Positions 3,569-16,803 of a stretch of 64,000 nucleotides of DNA are shown here, one piece after another. Below the pieces are notes generated by a model, which was given only the letters and a program-made list of their open reading frames with translations, ran no database searches and was not told where the DNA came from. Each line of letters opens with the position of its first letter. The stretch's first letter is position 1. Position numbers and translations under genes: made by a program. Origin of the DNA: a virus; IMG/VR virus record IMGVR_UViG_3300009151_000031; one strand, 5' to 3'.

Positions 3569-3819
3569 TAGACTGGAAAGCACGAGCTGATCAACTATTA
3601 GAAGAGTTTAACATGTGCATTAAGGCTAAACCAATGCACAATGTAGTAGATATACAATTAGAAAAAGATACGGTTGCTAAGTTTGCTTATAATTTAAGTA
3701 CACAACGTGGCTGGGGTTCTGATACGGAGATTGCTGAAGCAATTTATCAACTTGAACCAAGACTTGCAGAACTTAAAAAGAAATTAATTATAGAGATACT
3801 ACAACGTGGGCCTGTTTAA
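3565..3819 (+). CDS. Hypothetical protein
   Basis: ATGA overlap, operon continuity. Confidence 0.65.
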   Translation: MIDWKARADQLLEEFNMCIKAKPMHNVVDIQLEKDTVAKFAYNLSTQRGWGSDTEIAEAIYQLEPRLAELKKKLIIEILQRGPV

Positions 3820-5304: not shown

Positions 5305-6876
5305 ATGCGTAATTTAATCGATATCATCACTGAAGCTACTATTGCAGACTATCCAATGGGTACAACGTACCTAATTAGTGGTAGTAAATCTGGTCGTGCA
5401 TTAGCTGATGCATTATCGCATCAAGGCGTTAACATCGAAGAACCAATGGTTAGTGTTGATCAAAGTGAAGTTAACCCCAAAGAAATTAAAGCCTACGTAG
5501 GCAAAAATGCTCCGGGTGTTGCTAGTCAAGCATTCCGTGACGCCGATAACACATTGTGGGTTTACTATGGCGGTGCAAGCGGTATGAACAGTTGTTTTGT
5601 ACACGCAGATAAACTAGCTAACCGTGGCGAGATTGCAGAAGGCATTCTTGGCGCGGCTATGTTTGCCAAGTTTACTAAACGTGCCCCACAAGAAGAAATA
5701 GCACAAGTTACGGTACAAGATGTAGAACGTGTTCTTGCACAGTTGAGTAATAAAGCCGAAGACGTATACTCCGTTACGGTAAATGATGCCGATAATCGGC
5801 ATGCTGACACTATTACATTTGATCTATTCTTAAAAACAAAACCTTTTCAAGACCTAATGGATTTAAAAAAGCGCGAAGCACTTATGCAAGAGTTTAGTAG
5901 TGCCGCCGCCTATGTAAATACTCCCAATGCAGAACGTTACAGCCGTTACTTTTATATCAACGGTAAAACAGACTCGATCGAAATTATTGCCAATGGAGCA
6001 CTTGCTGAAAAATCAAGCAAGGTTGATGTGTTTGTACAAGTTAACGGTAAGCGTTTACGGTTAAACACTAGTCTTAAAGTTGGCGGCATCAAGCAGTTTG
6101 GTCAAGTTGGCGGCAGCGAAATGGCCAGTATGATTAAACTATGGAACTACTTTGGCGTTGATGTAGCACCAATGACTAAAAAGTTTGAAAAACTACGTAA
6201 CAACGATCAGTTTGACGCATTGGAATATATGTATCGCAACATTGCTGATCAGCTAGGTAAAGAACTACGCGGTAACAATGACAGAACTGAAGCATCGTTT
6301 GTAGTAAAAGTTGCTAATGCCGTTTCGTATTTTGCTACATTAGGCGAAAAGAATGTTGAGCTAGTAGACTTTAGCAAGGGTGGCTTCAAGATTTTACGTT
6401 TTAATGATCTAGTACAAAAGTTACATAATGTTGACTTAACAGCAACTTATAAAGAAGCAAAAGGTCGCCCAGAAATTGGTATCCATGATGTCTCAGATCC
6501 AAAACGAGAACTAGTAAGTATTCGTGTTAAAATTGAAAACAAAAAAGAAGGCCCTTATGTTCGTAACATCATCGAAAAAGGTCCGTTGTTAGAAGAATTA
6601 ACTACAGTACAACAAGGATCGTTGGCACACGGCACCGGATCAAAAATATTAGCACGTACACCTGCTCCGGTTAAAACAGCACCAGCATCCACCTCACCAG
6701 TTGCTAAAGTCAATGCACCAGTACAGCAACCAGTGGCCAAAAAACCAACAGGACCAACTCAAGATTATACCCCACCCGGACATCCAGACTATGTTGAGCC
6801 AGACGATGAGCTCAGATATTCTGAATCGGTAAGACCCAAACGCAGTCTGTCTGAAATACGTCGCCAACGCCGTTGA
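5305..6876 (+). CDS. Late/virion-associated protein with Pro-rich tail
   Basis: ATAAATA at 5294-5300 just upstream; N-terminus MRNLIDIITEA; low-complexity Pro/Ala/Thr C-terminus. Confidence 0.5.
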   Translation: MRNLIDIITEATIADYPMGTTYLISGSKSGRALADALSHQGVNIEEPMVSVDQSEVNPKEIKAYVGKNAPGVASQAFRDADNTLWVYYGGASGMNSCFVHADKLANRGEIAEGILGAAMFAKFTKRAPQEEIAQVTVQDVERVLAQLSNKAEDVYSVTVNDADNRHADTITFDLFLKTKPFQDLMDLKKREALMQEFSSAAAYVNTPNAERYSRYFYINGKTDSIEIIANGALAEKSSKVDVFVQVNGKRLRLNTSLKVGGIKQFGQVGGSEMASMIKLWNYFGVDVAPMTKKFEKLRNNDQFDALEYMYRNIADQLGKELRGNNDRTEASFVVKVANAVSYFATLGEKNVELVDFSKGGFKILRFNDLVQKLHNVDLTATYKEAKGRPEIGIHDVSDPKRELVSIRVKIENKKEGPYVRNIIEKGPLLEELTTVQQGSLAHGTGSKILARTPAPVKTAPASTSPVAKVNAPVQQPVAKKPTGPTQDYTPPGHPDYVEPDDELRYSESVRPKRSLSEIRRQRR

Positions 6877-6901
6877 CCTTTAAATAGCAATAATATATAA
6901 T
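6873..6901 (+). promoter_or_regulatory. sigma70 promoter for tRNA island
   Basis: TTGACC-17 nt-TATAAT, 12 nt before tRNA-Ile2. Confidence 0.8.
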
Positions 6902-6913
6902 ACATGCTTAGTT

Positions 6914-6988
6914 GGGCCAATAGCTTAATGGTAAAGCAATCGACTCATAATCGATTGAGTCTTGGTTCAATTCCAAGTTGGCCCACCA
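6914..6988 (+). tRNA. trnI: tRNA-Ile2(CAT) (lysidine type; Met not excluded)
   Basis: Cloverleaf, ATCGA-CTCATAA-TCGAT, GG start, A73, CCA. Confidence 0.8.
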
Positions 6989-7012
6989 GAATTAGTTGAT
7001 AAGTAGTACATT

Positions 7013-7097
7013 GCCCCGATGGTGGAATTGGTAGACACGCTGGTCTTAGAAGCCAGTGCCGAAAGGTGTGCGAGTTCGAGTCTCGCTTGGGGCACCA
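7013..7097 (+). tRNA. trnL: tRNA-Leu(TAG)
   Basis: CTGGT-CTTAGAA-GCCAG, long variable arm, CCA. Confidence 0.95.
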
Positions 7098-7113
7098 GAT
7101 TTAAGGAAGTAAG

Positions 7114-7320
7114 ATGAACATGGATCAAGCCGCAGTATTTTTAGCGGCAAGTATTTTAACAGCCTTAGGGTTTATTGTGTTTGTTATTGGCGCAGTTGTA
7201 GTAAACAATATTCTTCACCAATTTTGGAAGCCAATTAAATGGTCAAACTATTTAGAGTTTCCGCCAAACTTTATAGCCGAAGAAGATCTTAAAAAAGATA
7301 AAGAGCCTAAATTTAAGTAA
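7114..7320 (+). CDS. Small single-pass membrane protein
   Basis: RBS AAGGAAG; hydrophobic AAVFLAASILTALGFIVFVIGAVVV. Confidence 0.7.
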   Translation: MNMDQAAVFLAASILTALGFIVFVIGAVVVNNILHQFWKPIKWSNYLEFPPNFIAEEDLKKDKEPKFK

Positions 7321-7325
7321 AATCT

Positions 7326-7478
7326 GCGACTGTGGTGAAATAATGCCCGGGTGATGAAATGGTATACATAGAAGACTTAAAATCTTCCGTCTGTAATGGG
7401 CATGCCGGTTCGAGTCCGGCTCCGGGCACCAAGTTAGTTTGCGATGGTATGCCGGTTCGATTCCGGCCAGTCGCACCA
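7326..7478 (+). pseudogene. Split tRNA-Leu-like shell enclosing tRNA-Leu(TAA)
   Basis: 5' GCGACTG-TG-GTGAAAT at 7326 pairs with CAGTCGC-A-CCA at 7468-7478, with its own T arm GCCGG-TTCGATT-CCGGC. Confidence 0.75.
7345..7431 (+). tRNA. trnL: tRNA-Leu(TAA), long variable arm
   Basis: GAAGA-CTTAAAA-TCTTC, acceptor GCCCGGG/TCCGGGC, CCA. Confidence 0.93.
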
Positions 7479-7541
7479 ATTAATCTAGCCCAAACGGGCT
7501 AAAATGATAAATAAAAGTAAGAACTTCAGGAGATTTCCCAC

Positions 7542-8513
7542 ATGAATCAACCACGTAAAATCCGTTGGCTATTAGAACACGAACCAGTTGAGCTTTTCTT
7601 ACGCACAGCTAAAGAGTTTGACAAGCGTATTCGCGCTCTAACAAACGACGAAATCCAAGTAGAAATGTATAAAAAAGAAGAATACCAAGCTAAATTTGGT
7701 GTTGCTAAAGAAATGATGGATTCAGTAGGCCTAATGCACTCTGGCGATATTGAAATGACTCAAACACAAATCGGCAACGTTGGTCAGTGGTACTGCCCAG
7801 ATTTCTTTGCATTAGAAATGCCATTCTTGTTTGATAGCCATGAACACGCTACTCGTGTTCTTGATGGCCAAATTGGTGAACGCCTATTAGACACCATTGA
7901 GCAAAATGCAAGTGCCAAAGGTTTAGCATTTACATACTCAGGTGGTTATCGTGTGTTTGCATCCAATGACAAACTAACAACAGCCGAAGACTTAAAAGGT
8001 CTAAATTGTTTGACTGACATCAGTGCAGTTCGTATTGATACAGCCAAAGCATTTGGTTTAAATGTAGTTCCATTCAAAGATGCCACCTTAGAAGGCGGTC
8101 AAATTGAGATTCTAAATGATCGTTACGAAGCAAGCCAAACACGTGAAACAACATTGCCACGTTATGAAGCCGAAGCGTACCATGCAGGTCATCACCACAT
8201 TGGTGTTACTAACCACAGCATGTACTTGACTACTATTCTAGTTAACAAAGAGTTCTTTGCAAGTTTAACAGCGGACCAACAGGTCGCAATGAAACAAGTT
8301 GCTATGGAAGTTGCCAAGTTAGAGCGTGAATGGTCGGTGACTGATGCAGACACATTGGCTAACAACACAGTTAAACACGCTGAAATGGGTATTACCTATA
8401 CAGAGTTTGCTGATAGCGAAGTGGCCAAATTGAAACAAGCAGTTGAGCCATTGTACGAAAAATATCGTGCGATTTTTAGCCCATTGCTGATTGATAACAT
8501 TCGCTCTGCCTAA
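7542..8513 (+). CDS. TRAP/DctP-family solute-binding protein paralog 1, no signal peptide
   Basis: F..R..T..EIQVE, ALEMPFLFDS.EHA.RVLDG, YSGGYRV, DLKGL, LTTILVNKEFFASLTADQQ. Confidence 0.8.
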   Translation: MNQPRKIRWLLEHEPVELFLRTAKEFDKRIRALTNDEIQVEMYKKEEYQAKFGVAKEMMDSVGLMHSGDIEMTQTQIGNVGQWYCPDFFALEMPFLFDSHEHATRVLDGQIGERLLDTIEQNASAKGLAFTYSGGYRVFASNDKLTTAEDLKGLNCLTDISAVRIDTAKAFGLNVVPFKDATLEGGQIEILNDRYEASQTRETTLPRYEAEAYHAGHHHIGVTNHSMYLTTILVNKEFFASLTADQQVAMKQVAMEVAKLEREWSVTDADTLANNTVKHAEMGITYTEFADSEVAKLKQAVEPLYEKYRAIFSPLLIDNIRSA

Positions 8514-8521
8514 TTAGCCCT

Positions 8522-9145
8522 TTGAAGTATCCTGAAAAACAATTCGAGTTGTATGACAAGAATTGTTTTTCTACGACTAGCTGGCAAGAAATATTTTCTG
8601 GACGTAGAGTTCTGATTTGTTCTATTGTGCGTCCTCCTTTGTGTTTTAATCAAAATTATATAATAGATTTACAAATTTACAGAGAAATGTACAAGTTGCT
8701 TGGGGTAGATGAAGTCTACTTACTAAGCCGTTCTCGTCTTGGATTAGTCAGTTTATTAAATCGAACAACAATACCTTGCATGGCAGATGTAAATTCAGAA
8801 TTTGCATTGCATTTGAACAGTCTGGTCAATACAAAAGAATACAGTAAAAATCATTTGTCATCGTTCTGGGCATATCAGGTATTAATCAACGACGGCGAAG
8901 TGGAACAGATCACACAACAACCTCTAGAAAATTATCTGGCCACCATGCTCAAGGATACCAAGAACATTGCCGCACTTAAAGCAATTGGATTAAAAAACGA
9001 AAAGTTAATTTGGACACCGACTTTTTTGACACGAACTATTAAATTGGCCAGAGACATTTTTTACTACCGATTGCACCCAAACATCGAGCTCAAAAAACAT
9101 TTATTCTCAACTTATCCAAACATACTTGACAATAAAGATAAATAA
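8522..9145 (+). CDS. Degenerate Prx5/redoxin-fold protein 1 (TTG start)
   Basis: EIFSGRRVLI, LGVDEVYLLS, MADVNSEF, WAYQVLINDGEVEQ align with Prx5 scaffold. Confidence 0.55.
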   Translation: MKYPEKQFELYDKNCFSTTSWQEIFSGRRVLICSIVRPPLCFNQNYIIDLQIYREMYKLLGVDEVYLLSRSRLGLVSLLNRTTIPCMADVNSEFALHLNSLVNTKEYSKNHLSSFWAYQVLINDGEVEQITQQPLENYLATMLKDTKNIAALKAIGLKNEKLIWTPTFLTRTIKLARDIFYYRLHPNIELKKHLFSTYPNILDNKDK

Positions 9146-9154
9146 ATGTATAAT
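9126..9154 (+). promoter_or_regulatory. sigma70 promoter driving leader/attenuator
   Basis: TTGACA-17 nt-TATAAT, overlapping end of upstream gene. Confidence 0.85.
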
Positions 9155-9164
9155 TGATAACATT

Positions 9165-9293
9165 ATGACACTAAGAACTTGTAAACATCTACCATCCATA
9201 CAGCCAACACTAGGTATGTTAGCCTATTGGCCTGCGAATGAAGTGTTTACATCAATTAATAGTGATCGTGAATACAGAGAGGGTCTCAATTAG
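9165..9293 (+). CDS. Putative 42-aa attenuator leader peptide MTLRTCKHLPSIQPTLGMLAYWPANEVFTSINSDREYREGLN
   Basis: ATG 10 nt after -10 box (near-leaderless), TAG inside antiterminator stem; too short for ORF track. Confidence 0.7.
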   Translation: MTLRTCKHLPSIQPTLGMLAYWPANEVFTSINSDREYREGLN

Positions 9294-9351
9294 AGTATTG
9301 TAGTTTACCATATTTTAATCGAGACCCTGGACTAAACACCCAGGGTTTTTT
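9280..9351 (+). terminator. Mutually exclusive antiterminator (9280-9328) and intrinsic terminator (9323-9351)
   Basis: AGGGTCTC/GAGACCCT closes a ~22-bp hairpin; ACCCTGG/CCAGGGT stem plus U6 uses the same ACCCT. Confidence 0.8.
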
Positions 9352-9370
9352 GTTTATAAAGGAGAAAGAA

Positions 9371-9547
9371 ATGTCGCATAAAATTAATAAAAATGAGTAT
9401 TCGCAATTTATTCTTTCCCGTGAAGAAAAGGTTGCATTAATGGAAGCAAAAATTGCAAGAGCGGAAGCTCAAGTAAAGGCGTTAGCAGAAATTGTAAAAG
9501 TAAAAGCAAAGGAATCTGCAAGGGGGTCGAAATACACCTCACGCTGA
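9371..9547 (+). CDS. Small coiled-coil protein, first gene after attenuator
   Basis: RBS AAGGAGA, ATG 9371, EEKVALMEAKIARAEAQVKALAE heptads. Confidence 0.7.
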   Translation: MSHKINKNEYSQFILSREEKVALMEAKIARAEAQVKALAEIVKVKAKESARGSKYTSR

Positions 9548-9609
9548 TAAATGGATTGAGGTTATGTTAAGTACAGGCACGTTTTTTTCGTGTACTATAT
9601 TTGATAAAC

Positions 9610-9960
9610 CTGAGTAAGTGTGTAAAGAGGAAACGAGGTCCTCGCTGGGCACTATAAACATCTAGCAAACGGGCGGACAGGATACATAAAAGCCGGGCGA
9701 TAACCGGTTAGTAAGACTCCTGGGTAGGGTACTATCCCTATCATATCCTGTAGCAATACAGGGTATTCTAAAGCATATTAGATGAGAGCGTCCAAAGGTC
9801 CTGAACACCTTGTGGGACAGGGCACAGGAATCACCGTGACACTAGTATGTTTTATAATACCCTTTAGAAGAACACGCCCAAGCACCGCACCGATAAAGCG
9901 GACTGCCAGAGCAACCGTCACATAAACGGCCGCTGTTATCCAACACAGCAACTAAAGGGT
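9610..9960 (+). ncRNA. Candidate large multi-branched structured RNA
   Basis: No ORF, GC-richer, nested stems GGGCG/CGCCC, CAGGATA/TATCCTG, GGGTATT/AATACCC and at least six hairpins; boundaries approximate. Confidence 0.6.
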
Positions 9961-9970
9961 AGACTTATAT

Positions 9971-10055
9971 GGAGGAACGGCGCAGATGGCGGGGCGCGGC
10001 AGACTGTAAATCTGTTCTCTAGGGCTAGTTGGTTCGAATCCATCTTCCTCCACCA
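9971..10055 (+). tRNA. trnY: tRNA-Tyr(GTA), atypical C8 and D loop
   Basis: GCAGA-CTGTAAA-TCTGT, long variable arm, CCA. Confidence 0.88.
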
Positions 10056-10136
10056 CAAATCCTGAATTTTAATAAATATATTGAGCAGTATTTCAAATTG
10101 CACATAAATACATAATAAAATCCCAGGAGATTGTTG

Positions 10137-11084
10137 ATGCAAAAAACAAATAAAATTAAGTGGCTAATCGCACACGAGCCGGTACATCTTTTCTTACGTA
10201 CAGCAGAAGCATTTGCCGCTGATGTTAAAGCAAAAACCAACGGTGAGATTGATATTGAAATTTATACAGCAACAGAATATGCCAATAAATTCCACAATGG
10301 TCACAAAGAAAACCCATTGACACATATGGAAAATGGCACGTTAGAGATGAGCCAATTGCATATCAGTCAGTTATGGAAATACAATGCTCCATCATTTATG
10401 GCTCTTGAAATGCCATTCTTGTTTAGCGATCATGACCATGCTACCCGTGTATTGGAAGGCAACATTGGTCAAGACATGCTAGCAAGTTTGAAAGAAAAAT
10501 CACCAGCACGTGGACTAGCGTTCACATACAGCGGCGGCTATCGTGTCATGGTCAGTGATACCGAAGTTAACGAAATAGCTGACTTCCGTAATATGAAGTT
10601 CTATACAGGCACAAACCCAATTGGTATGGATACTATCGAAGTTATCGGTGGCCAACCCGATCCACACGCTATTGACCATTTTTGGCACAGCGTTACTGCT
10701 AATGGTATCAAACACGATGCAATCGATACAACAATTCCACGTGTTTTAGCCACAGTTGACAAACTAAGCAAGCGTTTTATCACTGACACCAAGCACAGCA
10801 TGTTTTTGACAAGCATTATTGTTAGTGAAGCATGGTGGAACACACTAAGCGAAGAGACAAAAGAAATTTTGGCCACTGCCGCAACCGATGCCGCACGTTT
10901 AGAGCGTAAGTGGTCAGTTGAAGACAGCAACCATGTTATTGCCAATGCTGTAGAATTGGGCTTAGAATATAAAGAACTAAGCAAAGAAGATCAATCCAAG
11001 TTCCAGGCACTAACAGAACCATTGTACCAAAAGTATGAATCTATGTTTATGCCAGGTTTAGTTAACGGAATTATCCGCGGTTAA
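10137..11084 (+). CDS. TRAP/DctP-family solute-binding protein paralog 2, no signal peptide
   Basis: HEPVHLFLRTA, ALEMPFLFSDHDHATRVLEG, YSGGYRV, FLTSIIVSEAWWNTLSEE. Confidence 0.8.
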   Translation: MQKTNKIKWLIAHEPVHLFLRTAEAFAADVKAKTNGEIDIEIYTATEYANKFHNGHKENPLTHMENGTLEMSQLHISQLWKYNAPSFMALEMPFLFSDHDHATRVLEGNIGQDMLASLKEKSPARGLAFTYSGGYRVMVSDTEVNEIADFRNMKFYTGTNPIGMDTIEVIGGQPDPHAIDHFWHSVTANGIKHDAIDTTIPRVLATVDKLSKRFITDTKHSMFLTSIIVSEAWWNTLSEETKEILATAATDAARLERKWSVEDSNHVIANAVELGLEYKELSKEDQSKFQALTEPLYQKYESMFMPGLVNGIIRG

Positions 11085-11090
11085 TAATCG

Positions 11091-11119
11091 TTGCAATAGT
11101 TTTAGTTTTAGTATATAAT
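11091..11119 (+). promoter_or_regulatory. sigma70 promoter for redoxin-fold gene 2 (leaderless)
   Basis: TTGCAA-17 nt-TATAAT; ATG 8 nt downstream, no SD. Confidence 0.7.
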
Positions 11120-11127
11120 CAGACTCT

Positions 11128-11580
11128 ATGAAAGATAATCTTTTAGAGTCTGATTCCTTTTGTGCAAAACGAATTCTGGTATTTGGTATTAATAGAATTC
11201 AAAGCCATCCTACAATAGATCATGTTAAGACCATTGATGCTATGCACGATGAATTTTTAGCACATGGCATAGACGAAATACATTTTATTTCTATTTGTGA
11301 TTTTTTATTGTTTGATCCAATGATGACCAAATTGGCACCACATTGCAAGTCTACTCAATTGACTGATACAACAGCGTTACAAAAAATGTTCAGTAAAAAA
11401 GGTCATCCTAGATACCTTTGTGAATATTGGCAGTTTGCAGCCGTTGTTAATAAACAACAGGTCGAATTCTATGCAGAGCAACCGTTTGTGGCAAAGTTTG
11501 GCCCAGACACCAGAGCTGATATTTATAGCAACGTGAGTGCAGAAAAAGTTCTAGCATGGTTGTCCAATAAATCAGTTTAA
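11128..11580 (+). CDS. Degenerate Prx5/redoxin-fold protein 2
   Basis: KRILVFG, HGIDEIHFISICD, WQFAAVVNKQQVEFYAEQP, YSNVSAEKVLAWL. Confidence 0.55.
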   Translation: MKDNLLESDSFCAKRILVFGINRIQSHPTIDHVKTIDAMHDEFLAHGIDEIHFISICDFLLFDPMMTKLAPHCKSTQLTDTTALQKMFSKKGHPRYLCEYWQFAAVVNKQQVEFYAEQPFVAKFGPDTRADIYSNVSAEKVLAWLSNKSV

Positions 11581-11588
11581 TGTACAAT
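11560..11588 (+). promoter_or_regulatory. sigma70 promoter restarting tRNA transcription
   Basis: TTGTCC-17 nt-TACAAT across the stop codon. Confidence 0.7.
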
Positions 11589-11612
11589 TGATACATCAAG
11601 TAAGAAATTACA

Positions 11613-11624
11613 CGCTCTTTAAAA
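11613..11624 (+). promoter_or_regulatory. rrn-like boxA antitermination element
   Basis: CGCTCTTTAAAA vs rrn boxA TGCTCTTTAACA, about 20 nt after predicted TSS. Confidence 0.7.
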
Positions 11625-11653
11625 ATTTAAACCATAGAACCCTGTGAAGGGTG

Positions 11654-11737
11654 CTATACAAAAATACACAATGACCAAACTCGGGTTCATCCGTGAGGTC
11701 AAGTAATTGATCCTATATCTTGTGTATTTTTGTATAG
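11654..11737 (+). ncRNA. Closed-stem structured element
   Basis: Perfect 18-bp stem CTATACAAAAATACACAA/TTGTGTATTTTTGTATAG around TGACC/GGTCA hairpin. Confidence 0.55.
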
Positions 11738-11828
11738 TCGAAAGAATTGGCACCCTAAGAAGTCCATTAGAGGCCTGACGCCCCTGTAAATCAATCAATA
11801 CTGTTTACGAACCGGGTCACTAAATTTT

Positions 11829-11905
11829 GGAGAAGTAGCTCAGTTGGTTAGAGTGCCTGCCTGTCACGCAGGAAGTCGCGGGTTCGAGTCCCGTCTTTTC
11901 CGCCA
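11829..11905 (+). tRNA. trnD: tRNA-Asp(GTC)
   Basis: CCTGC-CTGTCAC-GCAGG, G73, CCA. Confidence 0.95.
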
Positions 11906-11909
11906 AATT

Positions 11910-11985
11910 GCTCGGTTCGTCTATCGGTCTAGGACACCGCCCTTTCACGGCGGGAAGAGGGGTTCGATTCCCCTACCGAGTACCA
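11910..11985 (+). tRNA. trnE: tRNA-Glu(TTC)
   Basis: CCGCC-CTTTCAC-GGCGG, CCA. Confidence 0.95.
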
Positions 11986-11992
11986 ATGTTAT

Positions 11993-12067
11993 GCAGGATT
12001 AATTCAGTGGTAGAATGTCTCGTTGCCAACGAGAATGTCAGGAGTTCGACCCTCCTATCCTGCTCCA
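11993..12067 (+). tRNA. trnG: tRNA-Gly(GCC)
   Basis: TCTCG-TTGCCAA-CGAGA, U73, CCA. Confidence 0.95.
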
Positions 12068-12073
12068 AGTTAG

Positions 12074-12149
12074 GTATCCTTAGCTCAATTGGCAGAGCGT
12101 TGGTCTCCAAAACCAAAGGTTCGCGGTTCGAGGCCGTGAGGGTACGCCA
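12074..12149 (+). tRNA. trnW: tRNA-Trp(CCA)
   Basis: TTGGT-CTCCAAA-ACCAA, G73, CCA. Confidence 0.92.
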
Positions 12150-12155
12150 AGTTAG

Positions 12156-12269
12156 GTTTGTATAGTAGCTACAATGGAACACCGAGACACTTGCCAAAGT
12201 CGACTAATGCAAGGACCGGCCATGAAGAGTAGGGCTACCTCAGGTTCAAGCACTGAATACAAACACCCA
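12156..12269 (+). ncRNA. tRNA-like RNA: 8-bp acceptor + T arm, central rod instead of D/anticodon arms
   Basis: GTTTGTAT/ATACAAAC, TCAGG-TTCAAGC-ACTGA, inner GTAGC/GCTAC, ATGG/CCAT, CTTGC/GCAAG; ends ACCCA. Confidence 0.6.
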
Positions 12270-12276
12270 ATCCTAA

Positions 12277-12350
12277 GCGGGATTAGTTTAATGGTAAAAC
12301 AGCAGATTTCCAATCTTCGGTCAAGAGTTCGATTCTCTTATCCCGCTCCA
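12277..12350 (+). tRNA. trnG: tRNA-Gly(TCC)
   Basis: loop TTTCCAA, acceptor GCGGGAT/ATCCCGC, U73, CCA. Confidence 0.93.
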
Positions 12351-12359
12351 TTTTAACAT

Positions 12360-12563
12360 ATGACATTAAACGATTTAAAAGAAAAAGACCAGGCAGTGAT
12401 ACTCAGTGTCACCAACGAGCGTTTACAGCAAATGGGTCTTGTTCCTACAAGAACTGTAACTGTTTTAAGACGCATGGCCTGTTGTCTTCACATACGTGTG
12501 GGTTCCACTGAATGGGCCATACGTGATCAAGACGCTCAGTCAGTAACGATTATTCCCCGATAG
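12360..12563 (+). CDS. feoA: FeoA-family SH3-like protein
   Basis: LNDLKEKDQAVILSV, RLQQMGLVP, V.VLRR, IRVGSTEWAIR. Confidence 0.7.
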   Translation: MTLNDLKEKDQAVILSVTNERLQQMGLVPTRTVTVLRRMACCLHIRVGSTEWAIRDQDAQSVTIIPR

Positions 12564-12628
12564 CTCAGCGGTAGAGCAGTAGACTGTTAATCTATTGGTC
12601 GGTGGTTCGATCCCACCTTGGGGAGCCA
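12554..12628 (+). tRNA. trnN: tRNA-Asn(GTT)
   Basis: GTAGA-CTGTTAA-TCTAT, G73, CCA. Confidence 0.95.
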
Positions 12629-12635
12629 AAATCAT

Positions 12636-12713
12636 ATAGCGGTGGCAGAGTGGTCAATTGCACGGGATTGCAAATCCCGAAAACCGTGAGTTCAAATCTC
12701 ACCCGCTATTCCA
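12636..12713 (+). tRNA. trnC: tRNA-Cys(GCA)
   Basis: CGGGA-TTGCAAA-TCCCG, U73, CCA. Confidence 0.93.
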
Positions 12714-12741
12714 ATAAATCTTTTTAATGTATAATAGGTAT

Positions 12742-13050
12742 ATGATGAATAAATTAATCCGTGATGGTCAAGTTGCTGTACTAGTAAGTCCAGGATATGG
12801 TGCTGGCTGGTACTCGTGGCATTCAATTGAAGAACTGGTCTACGATCCTAGCATAGTAGAGTGGTTAGAACAAGGTGAAATGCCAAAAATTCAAGCATAC
12901 TTGGCCTTAAAATACAAAGATGAGTATTTTGGTGGCCTAGAAGATTTAGTAGTAATGTGGGTACCTGAAGGAGCTCGGTTTCGTATTAAAGAATATGACG
13001 GAGCAGAGAGCTTGGTACTTGAATCACAAGAACGCTGGATGACAGCATAA
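12742..13050 (+). CDS. Hypothetical protein (start probably 12742)
   Basis: VAVLVSPGYGAGWYSW, FRIKEYDGAESL; ATG 6 nt after TATAAT. Confidence 0.7.
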   Translation: MMNKLIRDGQVAVLVSPGYGAGWYSWHSIEELVYDPSIVEWLEQGEMPKIQAYLALKYKDEYFGGLEDLVVMWVPEGARFRIKEYDGAESLVLESQERWMTA

Positions 13051-13059
13051 GGAGGCCGT

Positions 13060-13524
13060 ATGTCCTGGATTGAAAATGTAGCGGCTGTAGATGTGTCTAG
13101 CGGATTCCATCATGCGGCTGGTCCTAACAGTATGCTGATTAGTATTGCTGACTGTGGTAGTTGGCGCCCAGAATCAAAGCACGAATTCAAGGAGCGTCAC
13201 AACTTTGAGTTTCTTGATATTGAGCTTAACGATTTTGCTTTAGAAGAAGCAATGCGTTGTAGCCAAGAGCAAGCAGATGAATTAGTTCGTTTGCTACAAC
13301 ATGCACTGGCTAATCGTATGAATGTGGTTGTACATTGTACCGCTGGCATTTGTAGATCCGGTGCAGTAACAGAAGTTGGAGTTATGTTAGGTTTTGATGA
13401 TACTGAACGGTTTCGTAGTCCTAATTTGTTAGTAAAACATCGTATGATGAAAGCCCTTGGGTGGACATACAATGAAAACGAAAAGCCAAACATTGATGAC
13501 TGGCGTACTTTTAGGAGTGTCTGA
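13060..13524 (+). CDS. Cys-based (PTP/dual-specificity) phosphatase
   Basis: VHCTAGICRSG = HCx5R P-loop; RBS AAGGAGG. Confidence 0.8.
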   Translation: MSWIENVAAVDVSSGFHHAAGPNSMLISIADCGSWRPESKHEFKERHNFEFLDIELNDFALEEAMRCSQEQADELVRLLQHALANRMNVVVHCTAGICRSGAVTEVGVMLGFDDTERFRSPNLLVKHRMMKALGWTYNENEKPNIDDWRTFRSV

Positions 13525-13721
13525 TGACAATTAATGCTATTTCACAATATAATAATAAAATATTTAATTTGATGGCTGTAAAGCAGTTGGATTTTAGACA
13601 TGAAGAACTTCGCTTAGAAGCAGTTCGAGTAAAAGAACAGCTTGAAGAAAATGAGCAAAAACGAATTGAAATGAATCGCCGGATGAATCGGCCCGGACAA
13701 AATGTTGATAAACTAGCGTAA
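13524..13721 (+). CDS. Small basic coiled-coil hypothetical protein
   Basis: TGATG overlap; ends PGQNVDKLA. Confidence 0.6.
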   Translation: MTINAISQYNNKIFNLMAVKQLDFRHEELRLEAVRVKEQLEENEQKRIEMNRRMNRPGQNVDKLA

Positions 13722-13743
13722 CTCAAATTGAAAGGAGTATAAT

Positions 13744-14346
13744 ATGCCAGCAGTATTTTTAGTAAGCGACACGCACTTTGGTCATGCCGGTGTATGCCGT
13801 TTTACCCGCAACGATGGTGTTACAAAACTTCGCCCATGGGATGATGCAGACGAAATGGATGAATTCATGGTCAAGGCCTGGAACGAACGTGTTCGTCCTA
13901 ACGATAAAGTTTATCACTTAGGCGATGTAGTTATTAACCGTAAAAGTCTTGCTATTATGCGTAGGCTCAACGGGGATAAAGTTCTTATCCGTGGTAACCA
14001 CGATATCTTTAAGGACACTGACTATCGTGAACATTTCCGTGAACTTCGTGCATACCATGTGATGAATGGAATGATTCTTAGTCACATTCCTGTACACGTA
14101 GAGTCACTTGGTCGGTTTGGTGTTAACATTCACGGACACTTACACGCAAATCGTGTTAAGAAAATTCGTGGAGTAAACGCCAAGACAGGTGAACTTCTGT
14201 ACAGTGATGAACCAGATGTACGCTACCATTGCGTATGTGTGGAGCAAACTGACTTTGCACCTATTCTGTTTGAAGATGTTATCAAACGTATTGAAGCAGA
14301 AGGTGGTTCCGTGGGTTTCCGTAACGGTAACGGCCCTACGATGTAA
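13744..14346 (+). CDS. Calcineurin-like metallophosphoesterase
   Basis: SDTHFGH, YHLGDV, GNHD, LSHIP, HGHLH. Confidence 0.88.
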   Translation: MPAVFLVSDTHFGHAGVCRFTRNDGVTKLRPWDDADEMDEFMVKAWNERVRPNDKVYHLGDVVINRKSLAIMRRLNGDKVLIRGNHDIFKDTDYREHFRELRAYHVMNGMILSHIPVHVESLGRFGVNIHGHLHANRVKKIRGVNAKTGELLYSDEPDVRYHCVCVEQTDFAPILFEDVIKRIEAEGGSVGFRNGNGPTM

Positions 14347-14406
14347 GAACAGTCTTGGACACGCAGACTTTAAAGCGAGGTGGGAGTAGGTGGAAGCCCT
14401 GCATCT

Positions 14407-14515
14407 ATATAAAAACACATCTATGATCTGGGATATGCGAATGCGTACATATAAACTAAGATCCCACTTGTTAGTGGGTACGGGAGTGGGAATCTCCCTA
14501 GGTGTGTTTCTATAT
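14407..14515 (+). ncRNA. Closed-stem three-hairpin element abutting tRNA-Met
   Basis: 17-nt outer stem (15 WC, 1 GU, 1 mismatch) enclosing GATCT/AGATC, CCCAC/GTGGG, GGGAG/CTCCC. Confidence 0.55.
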
Positions 14516-14590
14516 GGAAATATAGCACAGCGGTAGTGCATCGCCTTCATACGGCGCAGGTCAGTAGTTCAAATCTACTTATTTCCACCA
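14516..14590 (+). tRNA. trnM: tRNA-Met(CAT), elongator type
   Basis: loop TTCATAC, paired G1-C72, A73, CCA. Confidence 0.8.
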
Positions 14591-14594
14591 ATTA

Positions 14595-14673
14595 CGGAGT
14601 GTAGGAAAGTCTGGCTTAATCCGCCTCGTTTGGGACGAGGAGACCGAAGGTTCGAATCCTTCCATTCCGACCA
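14595..14673 (+). tRNA. trnP: tRNA-Pro(TGG)
   Basis: CCTCG-TTTGGGA-CGAGG, C1-G72, A73, CCA. Confidence 0.93.
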
Positions 14674-14678
14674 TATAT

Positions 14679-14754
14679 AGGACTTTAGCTCAGTTGGTAG
14701 AGCGTCTGCCTTACACGCAGAATGTCGTCAGTTCGAACCTGGCAAGTCCTACCA
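14679..14754 (+). tRNA. trnV: tRNA-Val(TAC)
   Basis: TCTGC-CTTACAC-GCAGA, CCA. Confidence 0.95.
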
Positions 14755-14757
14755 TTT

Positions 14758-14833
14758 GCCCCTATAGCTCAGTTGGTAGAGCACCGCCTTGATAAGGCGT
14801 AGGTCCCTGGTTCGAGTCCAGGTGGAGGCACCA
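14758..14833 (+). tRNA. trnI: tRNA-Ile(GAT)
   Basis: loop TTGATAA, A73, CCA; one C-A mismatch in acceptor. Confidence 0.9.
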
Positions 14834-14837
14834 ATAT

Positions 14838-14914
14838 CGGCCTTTAACTCAATTGGATAGAGTGCAAGTCTTCGAAACTTGAAGTTGGGAGTTCGAATCT
14901 CTCAGGGCCGGCCA
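14838..14914 (+). tRNA. trnR: tRNA-Arg(TCG)
   Basis: CAAGT-CTTCGAA-ACTTG, CCA. Confidence 0.92.
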
Positions 14915-14920
14915 AATTAC

Positions 14921-14996
14921 AGGACGTTAGCTCAGCCGGTAGAGCAGTAGACTTTTAATCTATTGGTCGTGGGTTCGATCCCCGCACGTCCTACCA
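14921..14996 (+). tRNA. trnK: tRNA-Lys(TTT)
   Basis: GTAGA-CTTTTAA-TCTAT, A73, CCA. Confidence 0.95.
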
Positions 14997-14998
14997 AT

Positions 14999-15074
14999 GC
15001 TACTTTAGCTGATGTGGTCATAGCGGCGGTTTGAAGAACCGTTGAACTAGGTTCGATTCCTAGAGGTAGCACCA
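14999..15074 (+). tRNA. trnF: tRNA-Phe(GAA)
   Basis: GCGGT-TTGAAGA-ACCGT, CCA. Confidence 0.92.
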
Positions 15075-15083
15075 AATTATTGT

Positions 15084-15157
15084 TGGGGGTTAGTGTAGCG
15101 GTAACACTACAGACTTTGACTCTGTCATCACTGGTTCGATCCCAGTACCCTCTGCCA
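15084..15157 (+). tRNA. trnQ: tRNA-Gln(TTG)
   Basis: ACAGA-CTTTGAC-TCTGT, 1-72 mismatch, G73, CCA. Confidence 0.93.
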
Positions 15158-15163
15158 AATTAC

Positions 15164-15238
15164 CTCGCCTTAGTATAATGGATAATACAGTAGGCTTCTA
15201 CCCTACGAATGTGGGTTCGATTCCTGCAGGCGAGGCCA
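15164..15238 (+). tRNA. trnR: tRNA-Arg(TCT)
   Basis: GTAGG-CTTCTAC-CCTAC, G73, CCA. Confidence 0.93.
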
Positions 15239-15244
15239 AACAAT

Positions 15245-15320
15245 GGTGACTATAGTGTAAAGGTTAACACCACGGATTGTGATTCCGTTAATATGGGTTC
15301 GATTCCCATTAGTTACCCCA
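15245..15320 (+). tRNA. trnH: tRNA-His(GTG)
   Basis: G-1/C73, ACGGA-TTGTGAT-TCCGT, CCA. Confidence 0.95.
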
Positions 15321-15328
15321 ATCAATAT

Positions 15329-15406
15329 ACCCCTGTAGGCAAATTGGTAAAGCCAACTCTCTTAAAAGGAGTAGTCTTCCCTGTTCGAATCAGGGCAGGG
15401 GTACCA
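15329..15406 (+). tRNA. tRNA with TAA anticodon and short variable region (atypical Leu?)
   Basis: ACTCT-CTTAAAA-GGAGT, 6-nt variable region AGTCTT, acceptor ACCCCTG/CAGGGGT, A73, CCA. Confidence 0.75.
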
Positions 15407-15411
15407 ATCAA

Positions 15412-15501
15412 GGAAGTGTGTCTGAGTCCGGCTTAAGGAAACAGTCTTGAAAACTGTCGGCTGTAAAAGGTCCGTGGGTTCGAATCCCACCGCTTCCGCC
15501 A
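15412..15501 (+). tRNA. trnS: tRNA-Ser(TGA)
   Basis: ACAGT-CTTGAAA-ACTGT, long variable arm, G73, CCA. Confidence 0.95.
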
Positions 15502-16803
15502 TTAATAAATGCTTAACTTGCCTTCGATGCAATGCAAGTATCGTGTTTGATCGTTCTTAAAATCCTGCGCTTTAACTGCGCCAGTACTAGGAATACTACT
15601 GTCACCGATGTAATACATTGGACTAATGTATTGCTTAAGGTCTCGTAATTGTCCGTCTAGAGTTTTTGTAATGTATCTAGCATCTAAGTTAGTAGACATA
15701 AATTCTACACCGGCTTCCCAAATCTGATATTGTTTAGTATCGATAAAATTTTGAAAGAACCAATTATCCATTTCTGCTCTGATGCCGGTAGTAGGTTTAG
15801 CAACTTGGAAGGTATTAAAGTCATAGTCGGGATAAACAATAGCACGTACAAGACCTTCGTACGTAGTGCGGTTATAGTGATCGCCATTGGGCCAGCGTAC
15901 AGCACTTTGGAAATTATAATGCATGGGCATTTCAAACCATTGTCGTACCATGTGTGCTTGTTTAGTTAACATTGCACAACTATCTGGTGACCAGTAAAAC
16001 AGTTCTGTTGTCACATTGGTAATATCACCCATGTCTGCGCTGTTGTGATTAGCAAGTGGATCTTGGAAATACAAGAACCACCGACAGTCTTTGACACACA
16101 GCTTGGGTTTATCGCAGCCAAATACCATGGCAATACGTATATTGCAATCAACCAAGTTCTTTTGTTCTGCACTACTGGCCACAGTATGCTTTGACCATTG
16201 TCCAGGCTGTAATGCATGACGAGTGCGAAAGATCCAAGACTCATCTGTACCTTGACGATCGATCAAATCGTCTGTGTAATCGTGTATGGTAATTTTTGTA
16301 GCAGGATAGTTTGCGGCAATCCAATTCATTATTGGTTTGACAGCAAAATCAAACTCGCTGAGATGATTGGCAGAACTGGTATCCCAGGGATTGCCTGATG
16401 CGTTTTTATCTGCTTGTTTTGGGTAACGATAGATAACTTCGTCTAAGTGTATTCCGTTAAGCAAAAACGCAAATGCTACTGTGGCACTATCGGCACCACC
16501 GCTTAACTCTAGACGTACATAGTCATAGTTATCGCGAATAGATTGTGCGCGACGTCGATACAGTTCACGTATATCTTCTTCGGGCTCAATATGCCAGGCA
16601 TGTTTTAAGAATACATCTTCGTTAAATAGCCAGCGCACAGGATCGTTATTGAGATTGTGTGCATGACCGGGAAGTTTTGAACCAGCTAAGATTGCTTGGT
16701 TTTTATTATAAAATACTTCATTACCTAAAGTATAGTAGCCAAGTTTTTTGTTTGGTTCAAATTTAATACCACCTGCAGAGGTGTGTTCAATTTTAGGTAG
16801 CAT
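15502..16803 (-). CDS. PP-loop (adenine nucleotide alpha hydrolase) family protein
   Basis: RLELSGGADSATV motif; TAAATA motifs upstream on minus strand near 16840-16850. Confidence 0.65.
   Translation of the reverse strand: MLPKIEHTSAGGIKFEPNKKLGYYTLGNEVFYNKNQAILAGSKLPGHAHNLNNDPVRWLFNEDVFLKHAWHIEPEEDIRELYRRRAQSIRDNYDYVRLELSGGADSATVAFAFLLNGIHLDEVIYRYPKQADKNASGNPWDTSSANHLSEFDFAVKPIMNWIAANYPATKITIHDYTDDLIDRQGTDESWIFRTRHALQPGQWSKHTVASSAEQKNLVDCNIRIAMVFGCDKPKLCVKDCRWFLYFQDPLANHNSADMGDITNVTTELFYWSPDSCAMLTKQAHMVRQWFEMPMHYNFQSAVRWPNGDHYNRTTYEGLVRAIVYPDYDFNTFQVAKPTTGIRAEMDNWFFQNFIDTKQYQIWEAGVEFMSTNLDARYITKTLDGQLRDLKQYISPMYYIGDSSIPSTGAVKAQDFKNDQTRYLHCIEGKLSIY

Follow-up and report, generated by a model that had tools for sequence, protein, structure and literature searches.

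Arrays of tRNA genes are common in phages, and current views relate them to codon usage, to the decay of host tRNAs or to escape from tRNA-cleaving defences; how such arrays are regulated is, to our knowledge, essentially unknown. The question is raised directly by a 64,000-nucleotide stretch of viral DNA (IMG/VR record IMGVR_UViG_3300009151_000031; the whole stretch is called the window below), in which a consensus promoter, a 42-codon leader open reading frame (ORF) and a hairpin overlapping an intrinsic terminator stand in front of tRNA genes (Table 1). What is a short ORF that contains all 20 amino acids doing at this place? On comparative sequence evidence we propose, with a probability of about 0.62, that the element is a ribosome-dependent transcription attenuator whose leader has been selected to hold a codon for nearly every amino acid.

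The leader ORF and its relatives

We began from the letters of the window itself. The promoter is the only 12/12 match to the sigma-70 consensus within positions 6000-16000, and it overlaps the end of the upstream ORF. Judging from the usual start distance, transcription probably begins at ∼9160-9162, leaving a 5' untranslated region of 2-5 nt; the ATG lies 10 nt past the -10 hexamer and is not preceded by a Shine-Dalgarno sequence, making the ORF near-leaderless. Its codons include both CTA and TTA for Leu, TCC/TCA and AGT for Ser, AGA and CGT for Arg (CGT being codon 35, 9267-9269), ATA and ATT for Ile, and an internal ATG at codon 18. A preliminary description, made from the window alone, had claimed this promoter, this near-leaderless ORF with 20 of 20 amino acids and these codon boxes, and was confirmed base for base.

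Within the window alone, 2 of the 177 ATG-initiated ORFs of 30-55 codons contain all 20 amino acids, so a single ORF of this kind is not compelling by itself and the significance has to come from its 70 homologues. Via a small protein encoded downstream we reached five IMG/VR loci in which promoter, ORF, hairpin and terminator all recur. A search with the promoter pattern, which is independent of ORF content, matched 36 viral, more than 120 metagenome and 8 genome-collection stretches. In IMG/VR, 30 distinct promoter-bearing stretches were counted, not all of them with the full element. Among the 107 distinct promoter-bearing stretches, 75 also carry a GGG-T5 tract, and these gave 70 distinct peptides; the rest were unrelated AT-rich hits or promoters directly before tRNAs. 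The homologous elements are headed by the same promoter and the same spacer motif (AAAGATAAATAA, at 9134-9145 in the window), which is identical among phages whose leader peptides are less than 50% identical and is kept whether an ORF end, a tRNA or intergenic DNA stands upstream. It may be a regulator site, and the different spacer of loci L015 and L016 (L015 near position 2960) shows that it is not obligatory.

All 75 elements with a terminator have an ATG-initiated ORF that is 25 codons or longer and stops 35-70 nt short of the U-tract; across the family it measures 32-53 codons. The other two frames over the same span usually contain 2 to 4 or more stops, and the probability of an open frame after shuffling is 0.076. 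In 55 of 70 leaders the ATG lies within 11 nt of the -10 hexamer; the commonest distance, 7 nt, places the A of the ATG at the expected transcription start. The remaining 15 have a 5' leader of 23-59 nt instead, and 10 of these carry an AGGAAA Shine-Dalgarno-like motif. The mode of initiation has thus been altered, yet the ORF has never been lost, which is the best available argument for translation of the leader, and it is from this retention of the ORF that we infer it. A reading of the element as a small RNA only (promoter and terminator, no ORF) was rejected, since the frame is open in 75 of 75 elements and the other frames have stops; the Shine-Dalgarno-like motif gained in some members also disfavours it.

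The MQTIVNHKHF... subfamily (L055, L065, L075, L084, L090, L145, L156, L159, L022 and L040) is not leaderless: it has a 5' hairpin (ACGCTAAAGAAAGCGT) and the AGGAAA Shine-Dalgarno-like motif 44-49 nt ahead of the ATG.

Hairpin, terminator and ribosome position

The hairpin of the window is built of 8+10+3 pairs (21 in all), has the GC-rich base AGGGTCTC/GAGACCCT and contains the stop codon of the leader in its 5' arm. Calculated folding energies are -23.5 kcal/mol for the hairpin region (z -3.4) and -51.6 kcal/mol for the complete 192-nt transcript (z -3.9). Bases 9324-9328 (5 nt) belong both to the 3' arm of the hairpin and to the terminator stem, so that the two structures are mutually exclusive. 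This arrangement, a hairpin that overlaps a U6 terminator and encloses the stop codon, had been put forward in the preliminary description and was read and folded in the window as claimed. A consensus terminator scan missed the terminator because its loops were limited to 8 nt.

The same geometry recurs throughout the family. Hairpins have 16-26 pairs and a GC-rich base of the form GGGTC/GACCC or CCTGGGG/CCCCAGG. In each of the 63 elements examined, 3-8 nt (mostly 5-8) of the 7-8-nt 5' arm of the terminator are paired in the upstream hairpin, which encloses the stop codon at a depth of 8-42 nt. From the stop codon to the start of the terminator stem there are 20-35 nt, and a terminating ribosome would therefore be too far away to mask the stem. 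MAFFT run on all subfamilies failed to align the 5' arms of the hairpins, and per-sequence folding and subfamily alignment were used instead; pairwise counts of nucleotide indel lengths were too noisy. In a 17-sequence subfamily alignment, 92% of the hairpin cells are paired and 11 of 18 pairs show double changes, a level reached by none of 500 shuffles, with slid controls pairing at 29-54%. The terminator stem likewise covaries and is conserved. The homologues thus have the properties that the preliminary description had expected of them: an ORF of similar length in every member, its stop inside a hairpin that overlaps the terminator, and stems that covary in spite of a drifting peptide.

To evaluate how a ribosome on the leader would affect this balance, we calculated the ensemble probability of the terminator stem in an equilibrium model with a ribosome footprint of 28 nt. 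Over 70 elements the median is 0.06 in free RNA, 0.08 and 0.07 with the footprint at codons 5 and 15, respectively, and 0.96 with the stop codon in the A site. In the window, the probability does not exceed 0.17 for A-site codons 2-35, rises to 0.84 at codon 36 and stays at 0.97 from codon 37 to the stop. The preliminary description had placed the last new decoding class about one ribosome footprint before the hairpin; the model puts the switch beyond codon 35, and each of the 20 amino acids occurs ahead of it. The modelled sensing zone averages 32.8 codons across the representatives, and an uncertainty of 1-2 codons in the footprint matters because Glu often lies at the boundary of the zone.

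These properties suggest the following mechanism, in which the kinetics of the race between ribosome and polymerase, and its physiological trigger, are what we infer. Host RNA polymerase would start at the consensus promoter, and a 70S ribosome would load on the 5'-terminal or near-terminal AUG and follow it. If elongation keeps pace, the ribosome would enter the 5' arm of the hairpin and halt at the stop codon inside; the 3' arm would be left free, the overlapping terminator stem would form, and transcription would end at the U-tract with release of a ∼190-nt leader RNA. Should the ribosome be missing, be slow, or stall within the first 33-35 codons for want of any aminoacyl-tRNA, the hairpin would form first, sequester 5-8 nt of the terminator 5' arm and allow read-through into the small protein, a structured RNA and the tRNA genes. 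The element would in this way compare the speed of translation with that of transcription and switch on genes that support translation when they are needed.

Two further structural candidates were rejected: helices inside the ORF body (a pause hairpin or a 5'-3' closing stem), which appear in the minimum-free-energy fold of the window and are not conserved, and base pairs between the ORF segment GTGTTTA and the loop of the terminator, which are possible in the window and, by eye, absent in the homologues. For a 1:2 pause or anti-antiterminator hairpin, RNAalifold on 30 ORF bodies gave only a 3-bp consensus at -1.4 kcal/mol.

Must the overlap serve a switch at all? The element could be a constitutive attenuating cassette, in which the ∼190-nt stable RNA and/or the ∼40-residue micro-protein acts in trans and a leaky terminator merely holds transcription downstream at a fixed low level. 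That the element has a consensus promoter and a terminator of its own, that the peptide has a conserved core (below) and that the transcript folds well (z -3.9) all fit this reading. There is also a precedent: PMC6614838 and PMC7298713 document that the attenuator-derived RNA and leader peptide of Sinorhizobium trpL (rnTrpL and peTrpL) act in trans. Nevertheless we consider a constitutive cassette improbable, since a plain terminator needs neither the overlap with a covarying hairpin nor the stop codon within it, both found in 63 of 63 elements. Moreover, the ORF body shows no conserved structure by RNAalifold, no promoter is predicted for the downstream genes themselves, and the excess coverage of amino acids and relaxed codon evolution described below are unexpected for a micro-protein.

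A second way of dispensing with the race is a switch that needs no ribosome, in which the balance between hairpin and terminator is shifted by a phage protein (for example the 54-58-residue helical protein encoded downstream) or an RNA attaching to the terminator loop or to the core of the leader, with autoregulation as the outcome. This would give a role to the terminator loop, conserved as A-Y-TAAA-M-AC in most members, and to the nucleotide block AGCCTATTGG, which is conserved without supporting RNA structure; the small basic helical protein is found in 43 of 63 loci, immediately past the terminator and each time behind a strong Shine-Dalgarno sequence. However, about one third of the elements keep the leader without the protein, and RNA binding by this protein is an assumption. 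A ribosome-free switch would not require an ORF, and the ORF is kept in 75 of 75 elements, with its initiation mode changed rather than the ORF lost. We therefore regard such a switch as very unlikely.

Table 1. Coordinates of the candidate attenuator and its surroundings in the window.
Feature	Position	Strand	Details
Sigma-70 consensus promoter	9126..9154	+	-35 TTGACA 9126-9131; 17-nt spacer; -10 TATAAT 9149-9154; 12/12 match
Leader ORF, 42 codons, all 20 amino acids	9165..9293	+	ATG 9165; TAG 9291-9293
Modelled sensing zone, codons 1-35	9165..9269	+	All 20 amino acids inside; ensemble model
Antiterminator hairpin (predicted)	9280..9328	+	5' arm 9280-9302; loop 9303-9305; 3' arm 9306-9328; from folding
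Intrinsic terminator (predicted)	9324..9351	+	7-bp stem 9324-9330/9340-9346; 9-nt loop 9331-9339; U6 9346-9351
Small protein gene, 58 aa, helical	9371..9547	+	Ribosome-binding site AAGGAG 9359-9364; no room for own promoter
Conserved structured RNA	9600..9960	+	ORF-free; motifs AACGAGG, CACTATAAAC, AACGGGCGG; within presumed regulated unit
tRNA-Tyr(GTA), first tRNA after the attenuator	9971..10055	+	Further same-strand tRNAs from 11829

Amino-acid coverage

Why should the leader contain nearly all of the amino acids? Across the family, leaders hold a mean of 18.7 distinct residues in ∼41, with 20 of 20 in 29 of the 70 and 19 in a further 16. Coverage was compared with null expectations on 19 representatives below 50% identity; kinship among the sequences inflates the significance values given here. 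The observed mean of 18.68 distinct residues was reached by none of 20,000 independent draws from the family composition (16.75±0.31), by none of 20,000 draws from a perfectly uniform composition (17.40±0.29), and by none of 5,000 shuffles of residues within alignment columns (17.53±0.25). For comparison, 40-residue windows from the proteins of this phage contain 16.3 distinct residues on average, and the probability of 20 is 1.1%. That the column-shuffle null is exceeded indicates that residues compensate for one another inside each leader. The residues that occur once are consistent with such compensation: the single Cys is spread over 12 alignment columns among 23 representatives, single Phe over 10, Lys over 9 and Val over 10, and Trp never moves.

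Coverage extends beyond the amino acids themselves. An internal elongator Met codon is found in 67 of 70 leaders, and 5.00 of the 6 six-fold codon boxes are covered, against 4.55±0.15 by synonymous resampling (0 of 2000 as high). A shuffle test for codon-class coverage, suggested in the preliminary description, came out in its favour, with amino-acid coverage above all four nulls and the six-fold boxes above synonymous resampling. Residue identity, by comparison, is weakly constrained, and composition is kept: over the same 98 locus pairs, the ratio of nonsynonymous to synonymous substitution (dN/dS) is 0.54 for the leader (dS 0.50) and 0.23 for the adjacent small gene (dS 0.67). By eye we counted ∼13 clades, of which 8 reach at least 19 residue types against an expectation of 7-10%. 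Runs of a codon are absent; residues occur about 1-4 times each with nearly all 20 types present, and the choice among codons in the leaders shows no clear preference for those read by the phage's own tRNAs. These results show selection on the leader to hold nearly every amino acid, and the only rationale that we found for one codon per nearly every amino acid is that any limiting aminoacyl-tRNA should then delay the ribosome.

The residue that never moves points to a different explanation, namely a nascent-peptide arrest sensor. Here the core QPxLGxxAYW, followed ∼10 codons later by Asp/Ile-Arg, would act in the exit tunnel, in the manner of TnaC, SecM or the Erm leaders, and stop the ribosome shortly ahead of the hairpin when a particular ligand or state is present; the wide range of amino acids would then be secondary. 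Trp is present in 69 of 70 leaders with a mean of 1.01 copies and occupies the same alignment column in all 31 representatives, and the core is kept although its Pro, Leu, Gly and Tyr codons have changed synonymously. In 39 of 58 leaders, 9-13 codons separate Trp from the last Arg before the hairpin, with a mode of 10; this Arg is encoded by CGY in 55 of 58 (CGT in the window) and lies at the modelled switch boundary in many members. Against a fixed stall site, the distance from this Arg to the base of the hairpin varies from 0 to 28 nt, and several clades with an otherwise intact architecture show the motif weakly or not at all. A dN/dS of 0.54 is high for a precise interaction with the tunnel, and arrest leaves both the excess coverage and the wandering single residues unaccounted for. 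We judge an arrest sensor to be unlikely on balance.

The CGY codon may depend on host tRNA-Arg(ACG). The tRNA set of the window includes, for Arg, only Arg-TCG and Arg-TCT.

Several observations weigh against the attenuator that we favour. The peptide core QPxLGxxAYW ... DR, which the preliminary description had not foreseen, is conserved with synonymous variation, and together with the W-x(9-13)-Arg(CGY) spacing it points to a sequence-specific role of the peptide for which codon sampling has no need; the conserved promoter spacer and terminator loop are likewise left unaccounted for. Coverage is common rather than universal, since three clades have only 15-17 residue types, and Cys is missing from 16 of 70 leaders. 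With a conservative footprint the modelled zone averages 17.1 rather than 18.9 residue types. Classical attenuators need codon runs for sensitivity; with each amino acid present about once, the element would react mostly when shortage is severe or when delays add up. Formation of the terminator needs no more than the lowest 5-8 pairs of the hairpin to open, which makes the outcome dependent on kinetics. Finally, in transcripts that come from upstream promoters the AUG of the ORF would not be 5'-terminal, and read-through would be probable.

Granted a ribosome-dependent attenuator, what would it report? We put at even odds the further proposal that it is a pan-aminoacyl-tRNA sensor, in which shortage or cleavage of any one tRNA, or slower ribosomes overall, would de-repress the tRNA array, the small protein and the RNA. 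By the same even balance, its inclusion of every amino acid, of both Leu, Ser and Arg boxes in many members and of elongator Met would make it the first attenuator of this kind. There is then an equal chance either way that a virus exercises demand-driven homeostasis of the translation apparatus, which would follow if the pan-sensor proposal were true. An answer to host tRNA loss or to anticodon-nuclease defences is a plausible speculation.

Known systems, downstream genes and source phage

It is instructive to compare the element with attenuators of known function. In the trpL, hisL, leuL, pheL, thrL and ilvL leaders of E. coli and Salmonella, arrival of the ribosome at the stop codon favours termination and stalling farther upstream favours read-through; the thrL and ilvL leaders sense more than one amino acid. 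Like the trpL/hisL type, the present element has a short leader ORF, an intrinsic terminator before the genes and an antiterminator overlapping the 5' arm of the terminator. In contrast to that type, it has no regulatory codon run and offers about one codon of nearly every amino acid instead, its start is mostly leaderless, and its target is a phage RNA/tRNA operon rather than a biosynthetic operon. It also has three RNA segments instead of the four of the trp type, with no conserved 1:2 hairpin found, so that absence of translation should give read-through and not super-attenuation. In short, the predicted working is trp/his-like without the codon runs and the 1:2 hairpin, and our literature search found no description of such a leader.

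Other systems share single features with it. T-box riboswitches are untranslated and bind one specific uncharged tRNA directly. They resemble the element in coupling expression to the state of the tRNA pool by antitermination; the element, unlike them, would read all tRNAs indirectly via the ribosome. Identity with a T-box was rejected, as the specifier loop and T-box of Rfam RF00230 were unmatched in the window and in 13 related loci. With the arrest leaders tnaC, secM and ermCL/ermBL it has in common a short ORF, a conserved Trp-containing peptide and the use of ribosome position as control, but where those depend on an exact peptide-to-stall geometry and a specific ligand, here the geometry is variable, the peptide drifts and coverage is conserved. 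In pyrL, the leader of pyrBI, a close ribosome blocks the terminator itself, and there too the outcome is set by how closely the leading ribosome trails the polymerase toward an intrinsic terminator (PMC4824070). With a stop codon 20-35 nt before the terminator stem, the ribosome would here block the antiterminator instead.

A parallel in phages lies in the species 1/2 RNAs of T4 and the PeSL cassettes of T4-type phages, which are promoter/stem-loop units and stable RNAs in tRNA regions. The present element shares with them a modular promoter and stem-loop beside phage tRNA genes and stable RNAs, but those cassettes are not known to have a conserved translated ORF that ends inside an antiterminator. 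Locus L006 carries a degenerate second copy (2608-2900), 1.1 kb upstream of the intact element at 3743. It has the same promoter, ATG changed to ATA and a 1-nt deletion, and past the INSD codons it is joined to an unrelated ORF. This recombined copy suggests cassette shuffling, as in the PeSL comparison, with the attenuator cassette as a recombination point.

If the attenuator works as proposed, a virus would gauge the health of the host decoding system and supply tRNAs on demand, and attenuation would be extended from one amino acid serving its own pathway to the global speed of translation. The element would moreover serve as a small genetic part (∼230 bp) for reporting a shortage of any aminoacyl-tRNA, and the small protein and the structured RNA downstream of it would probably be factors related to translation.

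The order of the downstream genes is constant in the 63 loci: an optional small protein, a conserved structured RNA and same-strand tRNA arrays, the last seen in nearly every locus whose sequence reaches far enough. The element always stands upstream of the small ORF and/or the conserved RNA, the downstream gene starts ∼25 nt past the U-tract, and no promoter was predicted between the terminator and tRNA-Tyr. Judged from sequence, the element is the head of a phage tRNA/RNA operon.

The small proteins (49-58 residues) are helical, with a basic C-terminus and the motif F/H-x-L-S/T-x-E..L..K..RAE, and no relatives were found in Pfam, PHROG, a phage database or the ESM Atlas; they may be partners of the downstream RNA. 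That RNA measures ∼190-420 nt across ∼35 loci (for example L111, L025, L101 and L071), with the family motifs AACGAGG, CACTNTAAAC and AACGGGCGG and a stem GTATTAAAGCA...TGCTTTAATAC. It sits between the attenuator, or the small ORF, and the first tRNA, always inside the unit that the attenuator would control. Rfam at the gathering threshold returned only tRNAs in the window and 13 related loci, and nothing relevant at E up to 10 over positions 9100-10130. In the MKTQLC... clade (L068, L076 and L100), a 15-codon ORF (MTTEEYWKWIHDNVQ) that has a Shine-Dalgarno sequence of its own takes the place of the 54-residue gene, in the first 70 nt past the terminator and before the structured RNA.

The source is an uncultured giant phage, with the attenuator at the head of its tRNA gene array. 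The window carries 27 same-strand tRNA genes and encodes GroEL, ribonucleotide reductase, UvsX-like and DnaB-like proteins, and its helicase shares ∼50% identity with the helicases of PA5oct and Atu_ph07, both jumbo phages. Among cultured phages, megablast and blastn against INPHARED matched tRNA-Tyr only and gave no close relative, and tblastn with the leader peptide and the 58-residue protein gave nothing meaningful and no homologue of the leader. In PA5oct, the nearest cultured jumbo phage, the tRNA array lacks both an analogous leader ORF and the terminator; it is headed (L184, NC_071039.1 267240-267560) by two near-identical tandem promoter repeats, TTGCAA..TATAAT.

The window also contains a duplicated two-gene cassette, at 7542-9145 and 10131-11580, interleaved with the tRNAs. 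The first gene encodes a DctP-like solute-binding protein (Pfam PF03480, E 3e-35 and 2e-42) and the second a peroxiredoxin-like protein (phrog_2281). The end of the first copy is overlapped by the promoter of the attenuator.

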